Sequence record: OR999189.1
DNA: 64,000 bases
Origin: Enterobacteria phage P922
Direction: 5' to 3' (one strand)
Under the pieces are notes generated by a model. That model did no database searches and was not told the DNA's origin. It saw nothing but the letters and a program-made list of their open reading frames with translations. Positions within the stretch are counted from its first letter, which is position 1. Each line of letters opens with the position of its first letter. Shown here piece after piece: positions 2,190 to 58,911 of the stretch. A program made the translations under genes and the position numbers.

Positions 2190-3128
2190 ATGTACAATAT
2201 TAAATGCCTGACCAAAAACGAACAAGCTGAAATTGTTAAGCTGTATTCAAGTGGTAATTACACCCAACAGGAATTGGCTGATTGGCAAGGTGTATCGGTT
2301 GACACAATCCGTCGTGTTTTGAAAAATGCTGAAGAAGCTAAACGCTCTAAAGTTACTATTAGCGGTGATATTACAGTTAAAGTTAATAGCGATGTAGTTA
2401 TTGCTCCAGTTGCTAAATCTGACATTATTTGGAATGCATCTAAAAAATTCATTTCAATTACTGTTGACGGTGTAACTTATAACGCAACTCCTAATACTCA
2501 TTCAAACTTCCAGGAAATTCTTAATCTGCTTGTAGCGGATAAGTTGGAAGAAGCGGCACAAAAAATTAATGTTCGTCGCGCTGTTGAAAAATATATTTCC
2601 GGCGATGTTCGAATTGAAGGTGGAAGCTTGTTCTATCAAAATATTGAATTGCGATCTGGTTTGGTTGATCGTATTCTTGACTCGATGGAAAAAGGCGAAA
2701 ACTTTGAATTCTATTTTCCATTCTTGGAAAATCTGTTGGAAAACCCAAGCCAAAAAGCGGTATCTCGACTCTTTGATTTCTTGGTAGCAAACGATATTGA
2801 AATTACAGAAGATGGTTACTTCTATGCTTGGAAAGTAGTTCGCAGTAATTACTTTGACTGTCATTCAAATACTTTTGATAACAGTCCTGGTAAAGTAGTT
2901 AAAATGCCACGTACTCGTGTAAATGACGATGATACACAAACTTGTTCTCGTGGTCTGCATGTGTGTTCTAAATCTTATATTCGTCACTTTGGTAGTTCAA
3001 CCAGTCGAGTTGTAAAAGTTAAAGTGCATCCGCGTGATGTAGTATCAATTCCGATTGATTACAACGACGCTAAAATGCGTACCTGCCAATACGAAGTAGT
3101 TGAAGACGTTACTGAACAATTTAAATAA
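2190..3128 (+). CDS. rIIB: rIIB protein
   Basis: 312 aa; N-terminus MYNIKCLTKNEQAEIVKLYSSGNY matches T4 rIIB as recalled; classic AAGGAAAATTATG start context. Confidence 0.9.
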   Translation: MYNIKCLTKNEQAEIVKLYSSGNYTQQELADWQGVSVDTIRRVLKNAEEAKRSKVTISGDITVKVNSDVVIAPVAKSDIIWNASKKFISITVDGVTYNATPNTHSNFQEILNLLVADKLEEAAQKINVRRAVEKYISGDVRIEGGSLFYQNIELRSGLVDRILDSMEKGENFEFYFPFLENLLENPSQKAVSRLFDFLVANDIEITEDGYFYAWKVVRSNYFDCHSNTFDNSPGKVVKMPRTRVNDDDTQTCSRGLHVCSKSYIRHFGSSTSRVVKVKVHPRDVVSIPIDYNDAKMRTCQYEVVEDVTEQFK

Positions 3129-3140
3129 GGGCTTCGGCCC
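3129..3140 (+). promoter_or_regulatory. intercistronic stem-loop GGGC-TTCG-GCCC followed by GAGG Shine-Dalgarno, no U-run
   Basis: perfect 4 bp stem with UUCG tetraloop 1 nt after rIIB stop; same cassette recurs near 41879 and 58896. Confidence 0.5.
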
Positions 3141-3156
3141 TTAACTGAGGAAAATT

Positions 3157-5754: not shown

Positions 5755-5834
5755 TGAGTAATTTCCACAACGAACACGTGATGCAGTTCTATCGTAATAA
5801 TCTTAAAACTAAAGGCGTCTTCGGACGCCAGTGA
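5754..5834 (+). CDS. stp: Stp peptide (26 aa; restriction inhibitor / PrrC anticodon nuclease activator)
   Basis: hand translation [26 protein letters not shown] matches T4 Stp as recalled; TAATG overlap with ndd. Confidence 0.8.
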
Positions 5835-9754: not shown

Positions 9755-10033
9755 ATGATTATTGATTCTCAGTCCGTGGTTCAATACACAATCAAAATTG
9801 ATATTCTAGAAAAGCTATATAAGTTTCTACCAAACCTATACCATTCAATTGTCAATGAATTAGTTGAAGAGTTACATCTTGAGAATAATGATTTCTTGAT
9901 TGGAACTTATAAAGACCTCTCAAAAGCAGGATATTTTTACGTAATTCCAGCTCCAGGAAAAAGTATTGATGATGTATTAGAAACTATAATGATTTATGTC
10001 CATGATTACGAAATTGAAGATTATTTCGAATGA
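9755..10033 (+). CDS. arn: anti-restriction nuclease (McrBC inhibitor)
   Basis: 92 aa acidic protein immediately upstream of asiA, as T4 Arn. Confidence 0.7.
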   Translation: MIIDSQSVVQYTIKIDILEKLYKFLPNLYHSIVNELVEELHLENNDFLIGTYKDLSKAGYFYVIPAPGKSIDDVLETIMIYVHDYEIEDYFE

Positions 10034-10182
10034 GTCATAATCTTGAAAAGGTAATCGAGCATAATGTAGCTCAGGAACGCGAGTCGTTCAAGGAATTCGT
10101 AGAAAAAATTTTTGAAGAAAATAACACAGACCAGTTTACAAATCAAGCGTCTGATGATATTATAACAAAGTCAACTAATTGA
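10030..10182 (+). CDS. small acidic protein (50 aa)
   Basis: ATGA overlap with arn stop; hand-translated; below track size cutoff. Confidence 0.3.
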   Translation: MSHNLEKVIEHNVAQERESFKEFVEKIFEENNTDQFTNQASDDIITKSTN

Positions 10183-10194
10183 GTGGTATAGTTA

Positions 10195-10467
10195 ATGAAT
10201 AAAAACATTGATACAGTTCGTGAAATTATTACTGTTGCATCTATTTTGATTAAATTTTCCAGAGAAGATATTGTTGAGAATCGTGCTAATTTTATTGCAT
10301 TTCTTAATGAGATTGAAGTAACGCATGAAGGTAGAAAGTTAAATCAGAATTCATTTCGTAAAATTGTTTCTGAATTAACTCAAGAAGATAAGAAAACCCT
10401 CATCGATGAATTCAACGAGGGTTTTGAGGGTGTATATCGATATCTAGAAATGTATACGAACAAATAA
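10195..10467 (+). CDS. asiA: anti-sigma-70 factor AsiA
   Basis: 90 aa; begins MNKNIDTVREIITVASILIKF; same length as T4 AsiA. Confidence 0.9.
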   Translation: MNKNIDTVREIITVASILIKFSREDIVENRANFIAFLNEIEVTHEGRKLNQNSFRKIVSELTQEDKKTLIDEFNEGFEGVYRYLEMYTNK

Positions 10468-11124
10468 TTATTTAGCCCTTCCTAATATTCTGGCCGCCTG
10501 AGCACATATTGATTCAAGGCGGTCATTACTTATATGATCATTTCTATACCAGTACATGGTTATCGTTCCAGCATAGATATTATCCAAATTAAAATATGGA
10601 CAACTGTACATGTAGTTTATTTCGGGAGTAGGCTTTTTAGTTGGTAAAAAAGCAAATTTTGAGTCGGAATAATAATGACGTCCATTTAAATGAACTGTAT
10701 ATTCATCCATAGTTTTATCAACAGGATATCCTCCAAGTGATTTTTCACTTATTGTTGAAGGTAATTTTCCTTCATATGCTATAATATCAACAAAATAGTT
10801 TAAGTTTTTAGGGCGGAAAGAATACACCGCACTAAAGTCTGCCTCAGATGATATATGAACTATCTGGAGTTGTTCCAGGGCGACAGATTCAAAGCGTGCA
10901 TTTCTTTCCTTTTCAATAATTTCACTGTATGTTTCATACTTTGATTGCTTATAGTACTCAAAGAAACTATCTCCCCTATACCAAACAATCGCCATCATAA
11001 ATAAAAGAATTACGACAGCTACTCGGGAAGCAAGAACCTTCCCGGTAGCGTTATCTTTGAACAAGCGATCTAGAACACCAAACAGAATATCAGAGGGCGA
11101 AAATGATATTCTAGGTGCTGCCAT
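10468..11124 (-). CDS. t: holin / lysis inhibition protein T
   Basis: 218 aa with one N-terminal TM segment and large periplasmic domain; same length as T4 holin T. Confidence 0.9.
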   Translation of the reverse strand: MAAPRISFSPSDILFGVLDRLFKDNATGKVLASRVAVVILLFMMAIVWYRGDSFFEYYKQSKYETYSEIIEKERNARFESVALEQLQIVHISSEADFSAVYSFRPKNLNYFVDIIAYEGKLPSTISEKSLGGYPVDKTMDEYTVHLNGRHYYSDSKFAFLPTKKPTPEINYMYSCPYFNLDNIYAGTITMYWYRNDHISNDRLESICAQAARILGRAK

Positions 11125-11142
11125 AGACCCTCCTTTTAAGGG

Positions 11143-11150
11143 TATTTATT
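11143..11150 (-). promoter_or_regulatory. possible late promoter (AATAAATA variant) for gene t
   Basis: reverse complement GAATAAATACC located 18 nt upstream of t start, followed by AAGGAGGG SD. Confidence 0.3.
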
Positions 11151-11154
11151 CACA

Positions 11155-11937
11155 TTATACTCTTGGACCATATATTGCTCCAACATTTTGCCACGTTGGA
11201 GCAGACCCTATGACAGCATAACCAGCAGCGCCGCCATTATATTCAGATCCTTGACCGCGAATATTGCATCTACCTCCCGCGGAACCTACTTCACCACCGT
11301 TTCCACCATTATAGATACCATTCACGGATCCTGAGCCAGGTGCAGAAATAGTACCAGCAGTTGCGCCTGATTGCATATCAATAGATCCGCCAGGTGCACC
11401 AAACGGACGCCCACCACCACCGCCAAAGGTTAATCTCATTTGTGAAAAAGGAGAATAATATCCGCCGCCACCGCCACCGCCACCGCCAGCAATAGCTCCA
11501 CCATTATTAATTCTTAGTCTCCCACCAATATCGTTTTGAATACAATGACCTCCAGCTGAGCCAGGACTATTGCTACCACCATTACCGCCACGTCCATACA
11601 TCGTTACGCCATGTATATTTAACTGAACATATTCATTTGGTGTATCTCCGTACATGAAGAATAAAGGAACATCTTTAGAATATGATACTAAATCACCTGT
11701 AATATTAAACACTATAGGTGCACTACCTGCCTCAAAACATCTATCTCGGAACCATTGACCATTGAAGTTATGGTCTGCTCCAAGCGTGTGAATAATTTCT
11801 CGTGAGCGACCTGCAAATTGACTCATCCAGCAAGGAACACCCAATCTTAATTGACCAGCCGCTTGACTCATCCAGCGCTGTCCCGTTTCATTTACGGCTG
11901 AACTTCCAATCCAGCCAGGAACTCCAACTACTGCCAT
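11155..11937 (-). CDS. 38: gp38, T2/T6-type long tail fiber tip adhesin with glycine-rich motifs
   Basis: 260 aa; several poly-Gly blocks ([25 protein letters not shown]) separated by variable segments; T4-type gp38 would be about 183 aa without these. Confidence 0.8.
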
Positions 11938-11951
11938 AATTTATACTCCAA

Positions 11952-11967
11952 AGGGGGAAATTTCCCC
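11952..11967 (-). promoter_or_regulatory. perfect 16 bp palindrome GGGGGAAATTTCCCCC between genes 37 and 38
   Basis: lies between gene 37 stop and the gene 38 SD (GGAG). Confidence 0.5.
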
Positions 11968-11974
11968 CTTGCTG

Positions 11975-14923
11975 TTAGAATTTAAAATATTTACTAATTT
12001 TGCGAGCAATTTTAGTAAAGAGAGGCGTTTTCAATTCTTTAATTTCTTCATTCATTTCCTGAATAGCCTTAATTAAAAGAGCATTCACAGCAGAGTTAGA
12101 AATTGTCAGAACATCAGATCCATCAACTTCAACTTTAGATACAGCTTCCGGTAATTCCTTTTCAAGGTCCTGAGCAATAATACCAACTTCACGTTTAATA
12201 ACACTACGGTCTTTAATAGACTTAACTTTATCGTAAATATAAACTTTCAGTCGGCAAACTTTTTCGACCGCTCCATATTCTAATTCTTCTTTATTAATCT
12301 TGAGACGGGAGTCAGAACGAATATACACATCGCTAAAGCTACCATTTCCTGGTGTATAAAAGAATCCATCATGATGGAATTCAAACACAGCTTGTGGGTG
12401 TCCAGCATCAGGAGAAGCCTCCGTGGATCCGACACGAATGATTGCTTGCCCCCACTGTGATGGAATACGACGCATACCAAAGTCAACGGCGGTGCTATAT
12501 CCTTGATTGGTTATAACGCTTCTTGCTTTAAGAATAGGATAATAACTATCTTGACCAACATAACCATGATCAACGAATAATGGAGCTTCTACTCGCCATT
12601 GGTTGCCCCAATCACCCGGTTGTCTAGCAATCCATCCAGAACCGTTAATGTGTACACGGTCGCGGTTAACGTTAACCATTGCGGTATTTTGCGGGTTTAA
12701 CGCAATCTCACCATTGTTTGTGATATGTACTGCCGCCTGAGAAGCATAGCTATAAAATGCTAGCGAATTATCAGCACCACCCTTGCCAATATACCAGTTA
12801 CCAGTCCCGTCTATGTCACCGCGAATATGCAAAGAATTACTAGCAGTTGTTGATAATACAATAGAATCATTAGGTGCATTGATTGTTAACCGACCTGTCA
12901 TCGTATCACCGCTTTTACCTACGCGAGTATTCAAAGCAGCGTCTAAGTTGGTTGCATTGTTGTATTTCTTCCAGATTGAACCAGCAATGTTACCATCAGT
13001 GTTCAAGAATGCTGCGCCAGCATAAACTCGACTTTGTGACATGAATCGGCCAGACGGCAAGAAACGCCATGTAGCTAATTCATTAGCTGTAGTTCCAGTA
13101 GCGGATAAATCACCTTGAGCAATGATACGATATTCTGAACTAGCAATATCCATACCAGAAGCCATAGTAATATTTGTTACAGTGTTTTTCTGTTTTACAA
13201 TAGGAGCAAACTGGTTTTTATTTGAATCGTCAATGGCCTGATATAATGGTGCAATGGTAGTATTCTGATTCGCGTAAGTATTAGAACCAGAACCGCTAGC
13301 AGGGGCTTGAATATATGCTCCTGGAGCAAGTGAAATTTTCTGATTAGCACCAAGATTAACAGCAGCAGTGATATTCAACAATCCCCTAAAGTTTTGTTGA
13401 GCAGTCCAAGTATGTGATCCGTCTTCAAGAACAACACGGCGACAAGTGTTAGTCCTGTTTCCTGGATTTCCAGCTATACGCACAACAAAATAACGGTAGT
13501 TTGTCTGGGATACAGTACCACGCCAAACCTGAACAGTACGTCCTGTGCCAGTATGTTCGCTAGGACCAACAGAAAACATAATTAAGTTTCCGTCAATCGT
13601 ACCCCAATCCATATTAGCTGGCATGTTCTTTATTTTGTTCAAAGGAACGCTAAACATACTACCAGGAACAAAATCAAAGGTTTGCCAATCTAACTCCGCT
13701 AATTGAGCTTTAATACCACCCATACCCAAAGTAATTGGCAGAGAATAAGATGTATATACTTCGTTCCATGCACCCCACGCACCACCAGTATATGCACGCT
13801 CAAAAATACGATCGCGAGTAGTTGCACCCGTTCCTGCGGTAGTGAAACGTTGGAAAATAGCACCGCCAGAAGCACGCTGTTTAACTTCCAGCAAACCAAC
13901 AATAACAGTCGGCAAACCTTCACCTGTAGGACAGTTAATAACGGCATCAGTGCCTAAAATATTATATAACCCGGGAGTTTTAAAATCATTCAGATCTCCA
14001 TCATAGAAAGTCGCTGGTGTGCCATGACCAACCTGCTTCCATTCCTCCCACTTAGGTGCACTAGCATCCCATGCAGCAGCGAGACAACGAGTATAAACCA
14101 TACCCATGCGGGTAGTATAACGCTGAGTTCTCGTGTATAAACCACCTTCAAATATTTCTAAAAATCCTTGTGCGGCTGATCCTTCTTCTGGATAATGGCG
14201 ATCAAATGATGCGATTGCGCTTGAACTGTTTCGCCATAAGCCACAATGTTCTAATTCTCCCAAGCTATCAAGGTCAATCGTTTGTGAAAGTGGACGAGTT
14301 GACGCTTGAACATTACGCCACACACCCCATGGACCATCGACGCCATTCCATTTAGCAGATAAGGAACGAATATAGACGTTACCAGATCTTACAGTATAAC
14401 GCTGAGTGCCAGCAAATTGGCCGGCCACAAACACTTCTAGTACACCTACGGCATTTTCTTCTGGGAATTTATTTGCTGGTTGCGCATTTGTTGAAGTAGA
14501 TTTCGACCAAACACCAAGATATTCTTCAATGGGCCCATACGTATCTAAATTAGCATCAGTAGGTAATTCGCCATTATTTTTTATAAATGTTGTGCTATTG
14601 ACATTTATGTCAGATGGAGTTAAGGTAATGTCCTTTGACCCATCAAAAGATATACCATTAATTTTCCTAGGTGTTTGCAATTTAGTAGCTGTGCTAGAAT
14701 TTCCAATTAAAGTTCCAGTTATATTTTCTGTAACCTCTAAAGACCCATTTATAGTTCCTCCATATTTTAAACCTAATTCTATAACACTACCTGAGTCATC
14801 TTTTGTGAAAATTGTTTTATCTTTTAAGTTTATAGCCAATTCACCTTCGGCTAATACTGAAGCAGCAGGACGTTGACCTGCAGTTTTGCTTCTTTTAAAT
14901 TGTATTTGTTTTAAAGTAGCCAT
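11975..14923 (-). CDS. 37: gp37 long tail fiber distal subunit
   Basis: 982 aa; N-terminus [13 protein letters not shown]... matches T4 gp37; C-terminal region diverges and ends in a chaperone-like domain (...[25 protein letters not shown]). Confidence 0.85.
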
Positions 14924-14931
14924 AAGTCCTC

Positions 14932-15582
14932 TTAATAATAGCCGAAATCTTGAACAGAATCCTTAATTACGATTTGGTCAAATCGTGGAACGTGTGAAGG
15001 TTGAGATGCAGGATTCTGTGAAAAAAGGTTTGGCGCAGTTAAATTTCCTGTCATAGTGTCTCCAGAGCGTAATACCCTAGAGTTTGCATTTGCTGTAACA
15101 GTATTTATTGCTCCATCAACATAATCTTTGCGAGTAACATCAGATGCTGCGGAAGGAGTAGATGTAACAGTTACCGATGGAGCCGTTACAGCCCTGGTAA
15201 ATGTTGTCAAACCTTCTGGCGTAATAGTAATTTGTCCAGTAGTGATTTCACTACCTGCTGGTCTAAAACTAATACCGCCAGAAGAGCCACCAACTACAAG
15301 AGTATTACCAGTGCCGCCACCAGAACGAATTCGGATAGGGGTTTCATTATTACTTAATTGAAGATAACTATTTACCCCGTAATTAATAGTAATTGGACCG
15401 GCGTAAGTACCACCATTAGCTTTAGAAACGAAATCGTTATCAGCTGCCTGCGGTTTATTATATTCTGAATATATTTTAAATGATTTGTAGAGTACATCGT
15501 CACCGGCTGAATTCAATGGAAAATTTCCTTGATGCCAAATGACAGATCCACCCACAGTTGAACCTACTTTTAAATCAGCCAT
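14932..15582 (-). CDS. 36: gp36 long tail fiber hinge connector
   Basis: 216 aa; position between 35 and 37. Confidence 0.8.
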
Positions 15583-15605
15583 TATATGCCCCTTTATTTT
15601 AATAT

Positions 15606-15613
15606 TATTTATA
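15606..15613 (-). promoter_or_regulatory. late promoter TATAAATA upstream of gene 36
   Basis: reverse complement reads TATAAATA 24 nt upstream of gene 36 start. Confidence 0.55.
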
Positions 15614-15620
15614 AAGAAAA

Positions 15621-15640
15621 AGGGAACCCGAAGGCTCCCT
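15621..15640 (-). terminator. terminator hairpin downstream of gene 35
   Basis: minus-strand GGGAGCC-UUCG-GGUUCCC followed by U-run. Confidence 0.55.
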
Positions 15641-15644
15641 CAGT

Positions 15645-16760
15645 TTAAACTTCTCTAAATTCCTGTCCAAACACTTTGCCAGTTTTAGAAGAGGCTTGTG
15701 TAGGAAGTACCATTATATCTGGAGGTGAAGCCGATTCACAGACATAATTAACGCGAATACCGTTGACGCCAAATTCGGCAGGTTTTGAAATGCCGCCATT
15801 TCTTGATACTTCAGAAAAACTTAAATTTCTCATGCCGCCTTGACCTGCTTGAGCAGTTCTTTGTGCATATATCGTAAATCCTACGGCGTTTTCTGGAACA
15901 ACTACATAGTCTTCTTTTAATTCCCAAGACCCAGCTTGCCCAGTAAACTCAGCTTGGGTCGAGGAAATATATCCATTTGATGCATCATAAAAACGAATAG
16001 ATATATTTGTAGTTCCAAGATCAAGTAAATCAGCATCAGCATATAGTTGTGCTTTAAGATAAAGAACATCACCAGGAATTAAATTGTAGTCAGAAAGTTT
16101 ACTTATAGCAGCTGAAGTTGGCAATCGCGCAATTTCATTATTAGTTCCTCCAACCGCAGACATAAATTGCTCAACGCTTTCGTATGTTCTTTTAGGAAAT
16201 CCTGTAGCTCCGACGTCTTCTAAACTATCAAATACAACATCTAAAATAGTTTGATAATCATCTGTGCTTTTTCTATTACTTAGTTTAACATGCTCTAATG
16301 CAATAGCTCTTTTAGAAGAAGTATAAAAAGCAGCATATGATACGTCAAATCTTGACAATACTGAATCTGATGGAAAAACTGAAGTTCCTGCTCCCCTTAA
16401 CCAAGATACCACTTCAGGAGGAAAATTAACCTTTCCGCTAGTTAATATAGCAACAAGTCTATTGTTTGACAAAGAATTCATGAAACTGACAAAAGCGGCA
16501 GATGTTGTATTGTTTGAAGCAGAAAAAGCATATGACTTGCTATCAACTAATGCTCCCGTAGAAGGGTCAAAAACTCTTAAATGAAGACCTGCACTAAATG
16601 TTTGATTTCCAACGGGATTATCCTGAAATTTAACATATGGCCCCGCAGTAGAAAGCGGGCAAGAACCCGCTATGCTTATTTTATATCTTACTGAATTGCT
16701 TTCCGATAAAAATGGCGTTTGGACATATCCTTGTCCAAACTCTGCCATAAATTTTTCCAT
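15645..16760 (-). CDS. 35: gp35 long tail fiber hinge
   Basis: 371 aa (T4 gp35 is 372 aa); position. Confidence 0.8.
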   Translation of the reverse strand: MEKFMAEFGQGYVQTPFLSESNSVRYKISIAGSCPLSTAGPYVKFQDNPVGNQTFSAGLHLRVFDPSTGALVDSKSYAFSASNNTTSAAFVSFMNSLSNNRLVAILTSGKVNFPPEVVSWLRGAGTSVFPSDSVLSRFDVSYAAFYTSSKRAIALEHVKLSNRKSTDDYQTILDVVFDSLEDVGATGFPKRTYESVEQFMSAVGGTNNEIARLPTSAAISKLSDYNLIPGDVLYLKAQLYADADLLDLGTTNISIRFYDASNGYISSTQAEFTGQAGSWELKEDYVVVPENAVGFTIYAQRTAQAGQGGMRNLSFSEVSRNGGISKPAEFGVNGIRVNYVCESASPPDIMVLPTQASSKTGKVFGQEFREV

Positions 16761-31400: not shown

Positions 31401-32578
31401 TGTCTACAGTTTTTAATACAAACCCAGTTGATGTTTTAAAAGAACCTATGTTCTTCGGTTCAGGTCTTGGTATTGCGCGTTATGATATTCAACGTCATAA
31501 AGTTTTTGAAGATTTAACCGAAAAGCAGTTGTCATTTTTCTGGCGTCCTGAAGAAGTAAACTTAATGATGGATGCTGCACAATTTAACAAGCTTCCTCAG
31601 TATCAGCAAGATATTTTTACTAACAACCTGAAGTATCAATCACTTCTAGATAGCATTCAGGGTCGTGCACCGTCTGCAGTACTTATGTCATTAATTTCAG
31701 ACCCAAGTCTTGATACATGGGTTGCTACATGGACTTTTAGTGAAACTATTCATAGCCGTTCATATACCCATATCATGCGAAATCTTTATACTGATCCATC
31801 GAAGGTATTTGATGAGATTGTACTAGATGAAGCTATCATGAAACGTGCTGAATCTATCGGTCGCTATTATGATGATGTTCTGACTAAAACCCGTGAATGG
31901 GAAAATGCTAAAGAATTTACAGAACTAGCTAAAGAATCTCCTGATGCTGTTTTTCGTTTAAATCGAGCTATTAAACAAGAAGCCGAAGCTAAACGAGCAC
32001 TAATGAAATCTCTTTACCTCTGTTTGCACGTTATTAATGCCTTAGAAGCTATTCGTTTTTATGTATCTTTTGCATGTACCTTTAACTTCCATAAGAACAT
32101 GGAAATCATGGAAGGTAATGCCAAGATTATGAAGTTCATTGCACGTGATGAGCAGCTTCACCTTAAAGGCACCCAATATATTATTCGTCAACTTCAATCC
32201 GGTACTGATGGCGGCGAATGGGTTAAAATTGCTCAAGAGTGTGAACAAGAAGCAGTTGATATTTTCATGGAAGTTAACCGCCAAGAAAAAGATTGGGCAG
32301 TTCATTTATTTAAAGATGGCGATGTTCCTGGATTAAATACAAATAGCATGTGGAGCTTTATTGATTACTTAACTGTATCTCGTATGAAACAGTGCGGTCT
32401 TCCATGCCCAATTACCGATGCTCCGGTTAAACATCCATATCCTTGGATTCGTGAATACCTTAATTCTGATAATGTTCAATCCGCGCCACAAGAAGTAGAA
32501 CTGTCATCTTACCTTGTTGCACAGATTGATAATGATGTTGATGATAAAGTTATGATGAGTTTTAAAAAATACTTTTAA
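31400..32578 (+). CDS. nrdB: aerobic ribonucleotide reductase small subunit, uninterrupted
   Basis: 392 aa continuous from ATG (track start is TTG); di-iron/tyrosyl radical family. Confidence 0.9.
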   Translation: MSTVFNTNPVDVLKEPMFFGSGLGIARYDIQRHKVFEDLTEKQLSFFWRPEEVNLMMDAAQFNKLPQYQQDIFTNNLKYQSLLDSIQGRAPSAVLMSLISDPSLDTWVATWTFSETIHSRSYTHIMRNLYTDPSKVFDEIVLDEAIMKRAESIGRYYDDVLTKTREWENAKEFTELAKESPDAVFRLNRAIKQEAEAKRALMKSLYLCLHVINALEAIRFYVSFACTFNFHKNMEIMEGNAKIMKFIARDEQLHLKGTQYIIRQLQSGTDGGEWVKIAQECEQEAVDIFMEVNRQEKDWAVHLFKDGDVPGLNTNSMWSFIDYLTVSRMKQCGLPCPITDAPVKHPYPWIREYLNSDNVQSAPQEVELSSYLVAQIDNDVDDKVMMSFKKYF

Positions 32579-32583
32579 GGAGT

Positions 32584-32597
32584 GGGCCGCAAGGCCC
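32584..32597 (+). promoter_or_regulatory. stem-loop GGGCC-GCAA-GGCCC between the AAGGAG SD and the denA start codon
   Basis: hairpin sits between SD (AAGGAG) and the first ATG of the denA reading frame. Confidence 0.45.
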
Positions 32598-32605
32598 ATT
32601 TTATT

Positions 32606-34191
<1,586 letters not shown>

Positions 34192-36845: not shown

Positions 36846-36846
<1 letters not shown>

Positions 36847-37043
36847 TGGCTTGGCATCATGAAACTTGGTCTATTGTTATTGTAAATAGCGGTTTAGTTG
36901 GTACTAGTAATGGGCAATTTTGTGTTTTCACTAGTGAAAACAGAGCTTGGGAGGAATGTCTTAAATTAAGAGAAAAGAATCCTGATGTTGAACTAACAGT
37001 AAAGAAAACTAAACTGCCTTTACCATGGAAAACTTATGAATAA
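36846..37043 (+). CDS. hypothetical protein (65 aa)
   Basis: TAATG-coupled to pseT. Confidence 0.4.
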
Positions 37044-41878: not shown

Positions 41879-41897
41879 AGGGGCTTCGGCCCCTTAC
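41879..41897 (+). promoter_or_regulatory. intercistronic stem-loop GGGGC-TTCG-GCCCC followed by GAGG SD
   Basis: same cassette as at 3129. Confidence 0.5.
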
Positions 41898-58653: not shown

Positions 58654-58896
58654 TTAAAAGCTTTCTTCTACTTCATCGTCTGAATCTTCTAATTCAGCTC
58701 TTTTTCCTGCCAAAGCATCTCTAACTGAGATGTCATCAGTATCTTTTAATTCAGTTTCTTTAACTCTTTTCTTATAATAAGCTTCAAGTTCTTCTAAACC
58801 TTCTAATGTTTGGCATGATGCAATTTTACCCATAAATTCATCAATAGAAGCTTCATAAAGAAATTGTTTAAATTCTAGTAACATCTTTTTCTCCAA
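58654..58896 (-). CDS. UvsW.1-like acidic protein
   Basis: 80 aa directly downstream of uvsW on the minus strand. Confidence 0.6.
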   Translation of the reverse strand: MEKKMLLEFKQFLYEASIDEFMGKIASCQTLEGLEELEAYYKKRVKETELKDTDDISVRDALAGKRAELEDSDDEVEESF

Positions 58897-58911
58897 AGGG
58901 CCGAAGCCCTT
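58896..58911 (-). promoter_or_regulatory. intercistronic stem-loop (GGGCUUCGGCCC) between uvsW and downstream ORF
   Basis: overlaps uvsW stop; followed on minus strand by GGAG SD. Confidence 0.45.

Follow-up and report, generated by a model that had tools for sequence, protein, structure and literature searches.

The window (the whole stretch of 64,000 nucleotides that was analysed) derives from a Tequatrovirus carrying a T2-type adhesin, and its closest GenBank matches over 11100-12400 are ES21, ES19 and fPS-65, at about 99%. Three genes follow one another on the late (-) strand. Gene 37 (11975-14923) codes for the distal subunit of the long tail fibre, a protein of 982 aa with a C-terminal Peptidase_S74 chaperone domain and the gp37 trimerisation region; gene 38 (11155-11937) codes for a T2-type adhesin of 260 aa (Pfam GP38 and Gp38_N, 3e-72); and the t holin gene (10468-11124) was recognised by a T holin domain match. 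Gene 37 and its counterpart in fPS-65 share about 99% identity at the 3' end, with a sharp divergence and many indels at about 12547-13500 (-), in a mosaic distal shaft. At the other end of this group of genes, a 14-bp imperfect inverted repeat flanked by AAAA/TTTT (10393-10425) lies in the 3' end of asiA, just beyond the stop of the convergent t gene (10468); the terminator scan calls it on the late strand, and the fPS-65 annotation has a terminator there too.

The nearest upstream exact match to the late-promoter motif, TATAAATA, is found at 15606-15613 (-), before gene 36. It directly follows a UUCG-capped terminator-like hairpin, GAGGGAGCCUUCGGGUUCCCUU plus UUUCUUU, at 15620-15641 (-), and the two together mark the start of the 36-37-38 transcription unit. 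A motif scan returned no further exact late-promoter match between this site and gene 38. Gene 38 is accordingly expressed from a polycistronic mRNA, 36-37-38, inside which the hairpin described below lies. The sequence TATAAATT, which fills the spacer between the gene 38 Shine-Dalgarno (SD) sequence and its AUG, overlaps the T4 late-promoter motif pattern at 7 of 8 positions (11940-11947, -). It was rejected as a late promoter: the match is only 7/8 and the start would fall inside gene 38. Since the motif, moreover, varies within the clade of the window (UAUAAUU, AUAAAUU, AAAAUU) and is missing outside it, a promoter function is improbable.

The palindrome between genes 37 and 38

Read along the - strand, the junction consists of TAA (the gene 37 stop, 11977-11975), CAGC, AAGGGGGAAATTTCCCCCTT, T, GGAG (the gene 38 SD, 11949-11946), TATAAATT and ATG (the gene 38 start, 11937-11935), and the late-strand RNA reads TAA-CAGC-AAGGGGGAAAUUUCCCCCUU-U-GGAG-UAUAAAUU-AUG. 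The stop codon is 4 nt upstream of the hairpin, and the SD begins 1 nt 3' of it, 8 nt before the AUG. A sequence-only reading of this DNA had reported an exact palindrome of 16 bp, GGGGGAAATTTCCCCC, at 11952-11967, between the gene 37 stop and the gene 38 ribosome-binding site on the late strand. The placement agrees with the junction as we read it, and the exact symmetry is real; the coordinates, however, were wrong by one base, since the window has a single copy of the 16-mer, at 11953-11968 (-), and the length was underestimated, perfect symmetry extending over 20 bp (11951-11970).

Such an element is unlikely to have arisen by chance. Matches to the 16-mer with up to two mismatches are expected 0.01 times per dinucleotide-shuffled window. 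Perfect palindromes of at least 20 bp number 2 in the window against 0.125 expected, and GC-rich palindromes of at least 16 bp number 1 against 0.07 expected. The second perfect 20-bp palindrome, TGTTTTCACTAGTGAAAACA, is located at 36923-36942, within a small + strand ORF (36846-37043).

As RNA, the 20-mer (11951-11970, -) folds into an 8-bp stem, AAGGGGGA/UCCCCCUU, with AAUU as the loop and an energy of -13.0 kcal/mol; being perfectly palindromic, the 20-mer has this energy on either strand. The stable hairpin that had been predicted for the late mRNA, immediately upstream of the gene 38 initiation region, is thus borne out, its 3' end lying one base from the SD.

Conservation of the hairpin at related junctions

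To the 78 gene 37-38 junctions (49 unique) found in IMG/VR, metagenomes and GenBank via the N-terminal domain of gp38, we added 16 GenBank alleles of the clade of the window, as well as T2, RB14, T4 and T6. Wherever a T4-like junction has an intergenic spacer, a GC-rich hairpin occupies the corresponding position (about 40 distinct junctions of T2-type phages, besides T2, T6 and T4). It starts 1 to 4 nt past the gene 37 stop, and mostly ends 0 to 2 nt before the gene 38 SD. The stems themselves differ: AGAGGGC-UUCG-GCCCUCU in T2, AAGGGGC-UUU-GCCCCUU in T6, AAGGGGG-AAAUG-CCCCCUU in RB14 and AGAGGGGC-UUCG-GCCCUUCU in T4. Among 44 unique 45-nt junctions, 19 distinct stem entries were listed, at least 17 of which are genuine junction hairpins. 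The median hairpin energy of these 44 junctions is -11.4 kcal/mol, versus -1.35 for shuffled sequences, and 41 of them are better in hairpin energy than at least 99% of their own shuffles.

The pattern of substitutions points in the same direction. When 25 junctions are aligned with MAFFT, pairing holds in 90% of cells, and four of the seven base pairs have changed on both sides, one stem position occurring as G-C, C-G and U-A. Covariation scores 0.251, versus 0.099 in shuffled alignments (reached in 0 of 500), and all slid registers give worse scores. Because MAFFT places the clade of the window one column out of register, these covariation figures are conservative. Given that differing stems with compensatory changes occupy the same place, it is the hairpin structure that is conserved, and neither its sequence nor its palindromy; from these comparisons, the stem appears to be under purifying selection across Straboviridae. 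In the comparison with T2, T6 and relatives that the sequence-only reading proposed, the structure is kept, whereas the sequence of the palindrome is not.

More distant gp38-like loci (L030, L048, L059, L060, L063-L066, L068 and L072-L075) have no hairpin; their stop and start codons simply overlap, for which reason the hairpin would be dispensable for fibre assembly as such. In another group of loci (L053-L057 and L061, on IMG/VR contigs of about 176-180 kb), the gene 37 stop UAA is inside the hairpin loop (GGGGC-GUAAU-GCCCC), so that coding sequence makes up the 5' arm.

The allele of the window

No identical junction was found among 50,697 GenBank phage records, the best match being an RB14-type allele at 95.8%, and T2, T6, RB14 and T4 all differ; the palindrome as a conserved sequence must thus be abandoned. 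Exact copies of the 18-mer AGGGGGAAATTTCCCCCT in IMG/VR were considered as homologues and rejected: the 9 matches are on unrelated contigs, mostly as terminators of the A-run/T-run type, and no T-even junction is among them.

Within the clade of the window the flanks are nearly invariant and the top of the hairpin is variable, with 4 to 6 G-C pairs and the loops AAAUG, AAC, AUU, UUU and AAAUUU. Between fPS-65 and the window, 11 differences were counted over 11100-12480, 3 of them inside the hairpin region. Relative to the common allele, the window has a G->T substitution and a one-base insertion, which turn AAATG into AAATTT. This change makes the loop self-complementary, with a gain of one or two A-U pairs. 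In Ripley's model, quasipalindromes template mutations in which one arm is copied from the other. As AAATTT is exactly the outcome expected from copying the 5' arm of the hairpin, we infer that a single quasipalindrome-templated event may have produced the allele. Perfect palindromy is probably incidental, a private variant of this genome.

The hairpin as a late-strand RNA

A hairpin acting as RNA of the late strand is indicated by loop type, by G·U pairing and by orientation. The UUCG loop is present in 17 of the 44 unique junctions, on 9 different stems. This loop is exceptionally stable only in RNA, and the opposite strand reads CGAA. In T4, one stem pair is G·U; its counterpart on the opposite strand is an A·C mismatch, and the hairpin is there 4.8 kcal/mol weaker (-13.0 versus -8.2 kcal/mol). 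Finally, each of the 10 CUUCGG hairpins of the window has the sense orientation relative to the genes beside it. We consider it very probable that a conserved late-strand RNA hairpin resides at the 37-38 junction.

The same layout, in which a stop codon is followed by a C(UUCG)G hairpin, an SD and an AUG, also occurs at 3126-3143 (+), 5814-5829 (+), 41879-41894 (+) and 58893-58911 (-). In these four junctions the UUCG is sense and the hairpin ends 13 to 17 nt before the next ATG. The 37-38 hairpin thus belongs to a family of intercistronic hairpins spread over the genome, which the sequence-only reading did not recognise, and because the layout recurs at four other junctions of the window, its role would be general rather than specific to fibre genes.

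A different arrangement is seen at 32576-32608 (+), where the TAA stop of an nrdB-like gene is followed by GGAG, the hairpin TGGGCC-GCAA-GGCCCA, and TTTTATT-ATG of denA (endonuclease II-like, GIY-YIG). The SD is here 5' of the hairpin, at a linear distance of about 22 nt from the AUG, which is the split layout of T4 genes 38 and 25.

Comparison with known elements

The closest known system is the hairpin at the same junction of T4. According to the review of Uzan & Miller (2010, PMC3014915), which cites Nivinskas et al. (1999), this hairpin forms on the mRNA and is compatible with gene 38 initiation, the initiation region being split. Both hairpins come right after the gene 37 stop, have a short GC stem, belong to late mRNA and are predicted at -13.0 kcal/mol. 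They differ, however, in the position of the SD, which in T4 is 5' of the hairpin, with a gap of 22 nt to the AUG that is bridged, and in the window 3' of the hairpin, 8 nt from the AUG. They also differ in the loop (AAUU in the window, UUCG in T4) and in the downstream gene, T4 gene 38 being an unrelated chaperone gene and that of the window a T2-type adhesin gene. The window thus shares the locus with the split initiation regions of T4 genes 38 and 25, and lacks their defining hairpin between an SD and an AUG more than 15 nt apart.

Extra-stable C(UUCG)G hairpins are said to have been described in T4 intercistronic regions by Tuerk and colleagues. As in that class, the hairpin of the window is short, GC-rich and sense, and stands between cistrons; T2, T4 and 17 of the 44 unique junctions carry UUCG, whereas the allele of the window is without the UUCG tetraloop and has the loop AAUU (AAAUUU). 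What it shares with T-even intercistronic hairpins in general is its sense position between cistrons of one mRNA, an energy of -13.0 kcal/mol for 20 nt, and compensatory change. Because its loop lacks C(UUCG)G, we file it under the broader class of intercistronic hairpins and not as a CUUCGG hairpin proper.

Stable hairpins of the REP or terminator type that act as 3' stabilisers in polycistronic mRNAs are barriers to PNPase and RNase II. The element of the window resembles them as a stable stem-loop just past a stop codon within an operon, from which protection of the upstream cistron and unequal expression would be expected. REP elements are, however, far larger and form a repeated family, whereas the hairpin of the window is small and belongs to no repeated sequence family.

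Two further classes are more remote. T4 genes e, soc and I-TevI have hairpins that sequester the ribosome-binding site (PMC3014915). The window shares with them an RNA structure at a T4-type translation-initiation region, but in these genes the SD or the AUG is inside the stem, whereas the conserved stem of the window excludes both, and the pairing predicted for its SD is not above chance. PeSL cassettes combine an early promoter and a stem-loop (Arbiol et al. 2010; Comeau et al. 2014, PMC4122927); they likewise show a stem-loop of the GN-loop-CN type at a gene boundary of T4-like genomes, with mosaic flanks. They lie, however, in hyperplastic early regions, whereas the hairpin of the window is in a late operon with no adjacent promoter: a scan of both strands beside 11951-11970 for a promoter-like site (early sigma-70, the promoter that defines PeSL) found none. 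Rfam covariance models gave no match over 10000-16000 at E<=1.

Proposed role of the hairpin

The question is what such a hairpin would do in the late mRNA. Our main reading, to which we assign a probability of about 0.45, is that the palindrome of the window is the local allele of a small, stable, GC-rich RNA hairpin that is kept between genes 37 and 38 of T4-like phages as a barrier to mRNA decay and a boundary of the gene 38 initiation region. The mechanism specifically, which is drawn from analogy, we hold still more tentatively. Selection would act on the stem alone, palindromy being incidental. Behind a ribosome terminating on gene 37 the hairpin would refold autonomously, and it would stop 3'->5' exonucleases or fix processed ends, whereby the 36-37 segment would outlive the 38-t segment. 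It would also delimit the gene 38 initiation region at a fixed point on its 5' side, while leaving the SD uncovered. The net outcome would be a gp37:gp38 output set by the hairpin. The suggestion in the sequence-only reading that the hairpin may tune the amount of adhesin relative to the fibre shaft would agree with this mechanism, although the hairpin does not occlude the ribosome-binding site.

In the tail fibre, trimeric gp37 bears a single gp38, and a message that lasts longer for 36-37 than for 38-t would suit this composition. We infer the decay-barrier role by likening the hairpin to stable 3' hairpins and to the C(UUCG)G class mentioned above. The only experimental literature on this position, that on T4 as reviewed in PMC3014915, speaks of a translational role and not of stability. 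A literature search for a T4 transcript-end map found none, and the comparative gp38 paper of Trojet 2011 makes no mention of the hairpin.

Predictions for the initiation region differ between types of junction. For UUCG-type junctions an open SD is predicted (probability of being unpaired 0.5 to 0.9), and 82 to 98% of shuffled 5' flanks pair more with the initiation region than the real flank does. In the clade of the window the SD is predicted to be mostly paired (probability of being unpaired 0.02 to 0.31), a prediction more in keeping with repression or coupling than with an open boundary. The predicted pairing in this clade is, however, without a consistent partner and not above chance.

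Alternative explanations

The alternative that retains most weight, though we judge it rather unlikely, is that the hairpin acts on translation, being a part of the gene 38 initiation region that sets how frequently ribosomes start there. In one variant it would seed a more extensive helix, in which SD and AUG are paired to the final codons of gene 37 and translation of the two genes is thereby coupled; in others it would stack on the helix formed by SD and anti-SD, or limit re-initiation by ribosomes terminating on gene 37. The T4 hairpin at the same position is described in PMC3014915 as shortening the distance between SD and AUG from 22 nt to 5 nt. The SD of the window is already 8 nt from the AUG, unlike that of T4, so that bridging is unneeded. 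A translational role is consistent with the adjacency of hairpin and SD in most junctions (0 to 2 nt), although the SD itself is outside the conserved hairpin.

RNAfold does lengthen the stem in the clade of the window, GGAG pairing with UUCU of the gene 37 end, so that the predicted probability of an unpaired SD falls to 0.05; when both arms are removed in silico, SD accessibility rises to 0.5-0.6. This extension adds only -6.0 kcal/mol, however, which is equalled by 156 of 500 shuffled 5' flanks, its partner differs among near-identical alleles, and among 17 alleles of the clade no covariation was seen between the terminal codons of gene 37 and the gene 38 spacer. UUCG-type junctions, moreover, keep the SD open. 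We therefore reject, for lack of support, the model of an extended stem that sequesters the SD and couples translation: shuffled flanks do as well, partners are inconsistent and covariation is lacking. A hairpin sequestering the ribosome-binding site was rejected as well, as the core stem excludes SD and AUG and the extended stem is absent in UUCG clades.

A leaky intrinsic terminator of late transcription after gene 37, letting fewer transcripts into gene 38, seems to us very improbable. A strong GC hairpin is indeed followed by UUU on the late strand, and several relatives have 3 to 5 U after the stem (L051, L067 and L069-L071). A simple terminator scan nevertheless made no call on the - strand at the hairpin, where the tail is UUUGGAGU, and most relatives have 0 to 2 U after the stem (GGCCCUGGAGG, GCCCUCUAAGGA), T4 having CUAAAUAUG. 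Efficient termination on the late strand would in addition be lethal, because gene 38 is without a promoter of its own. A canonical intrinsic (Rho-independent) terminator of the late strand is in any case rejected, there being no direct U-tract after the stem, in the tail UUUGGAGU, and no call by the scan.

That the hairpin might instead work on the + strand, as a terminator in the early direction halting read-through from the asiA/motA side that would be antisense to t and gene 38, we regard as highly doubtful. The consensus scan calls the site on the + strand only, marginally (CTTGCTGTTA); the fPS-65 record annotates a 'terminator' at the hairpin, on the strand opposite to genes 37 and 38; and the antisense tail of relatives is U-rich (4 to 6 U in 8). 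This last feature is due to the A-rich end of gene 37, and is expected anyway from an A-rich, AT-rich coding end; in the window itself just 2 U directly follow the stem on the + strand (UUGCUGUUAG). The preference for UUCG, which reads as an unremarkable CGAA on the other strand, on 9 different stems, the loss of 4.8 kcal/mol by the T4 hairpin on the + strand, and the fact that hairpins of the same class are always sense to their genes, all argue against an antisense function.

An element acting as DNA, whether a cruciform, a palindrome bound by a protein or a short conserved linker for recombination of adhesin cassettes, is scarcely credible to us. It would account for the nearly identical junction hairpins of T4 and T2 (AGAGGG(G)CTTCGGCCCT(T)CTAA) despite unrelated gp37 ends and gp38 genes, for the AGGGCCTTCGGGCCCT hairpin found with several different flanks, and for the 3 out of 11 differences from fPS-65 (11100-12480) that are within the hairpin region, and the stem-loops of PeSL cassettes have been proposed as sites of recombination in T4-like genomes (PMC4122927). 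But short GC stems capped by UUCG make up a small sequence space, in which identical hairpins may be convergent, and the palindromy of the loop is private to the genome of the window. A sequence-specific DNA site is excluded, since the sequence varies freely while pairing is maintained.

Conclusions

The hairpin is, in our opinion, an ordinary instance of an already known type of element, and involves no new kind of biology. We view as improbable a combined reading, in which it is a linker for swapping receptor-binding cassettes that also sets a gp37:gp38 ratio of roughly 3:1 through segmental mRNA decay. If true, the linker reading would make the hairpin a late-operon counterpart of the PeSL cassettes, with roles in both expression and recombination.

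For the family, the consequences are of a practical kind. When gene 37/38 cassettes are swapped to change the host range of T2-type phages, it may be worthwhile to keep or rebuild the hairpin and its spacing to the SD, since the stem appears to be under purifying selection and its T4 counterpart is required for gene 38 translation; the value of this would be modest. The set of at least 17 compensating stems would, furthermore, constitute a natural series for testing the roles of T-even hairpins, decay barrier versus initiation architecture, at a junction where the ratio of the two proteins is known.
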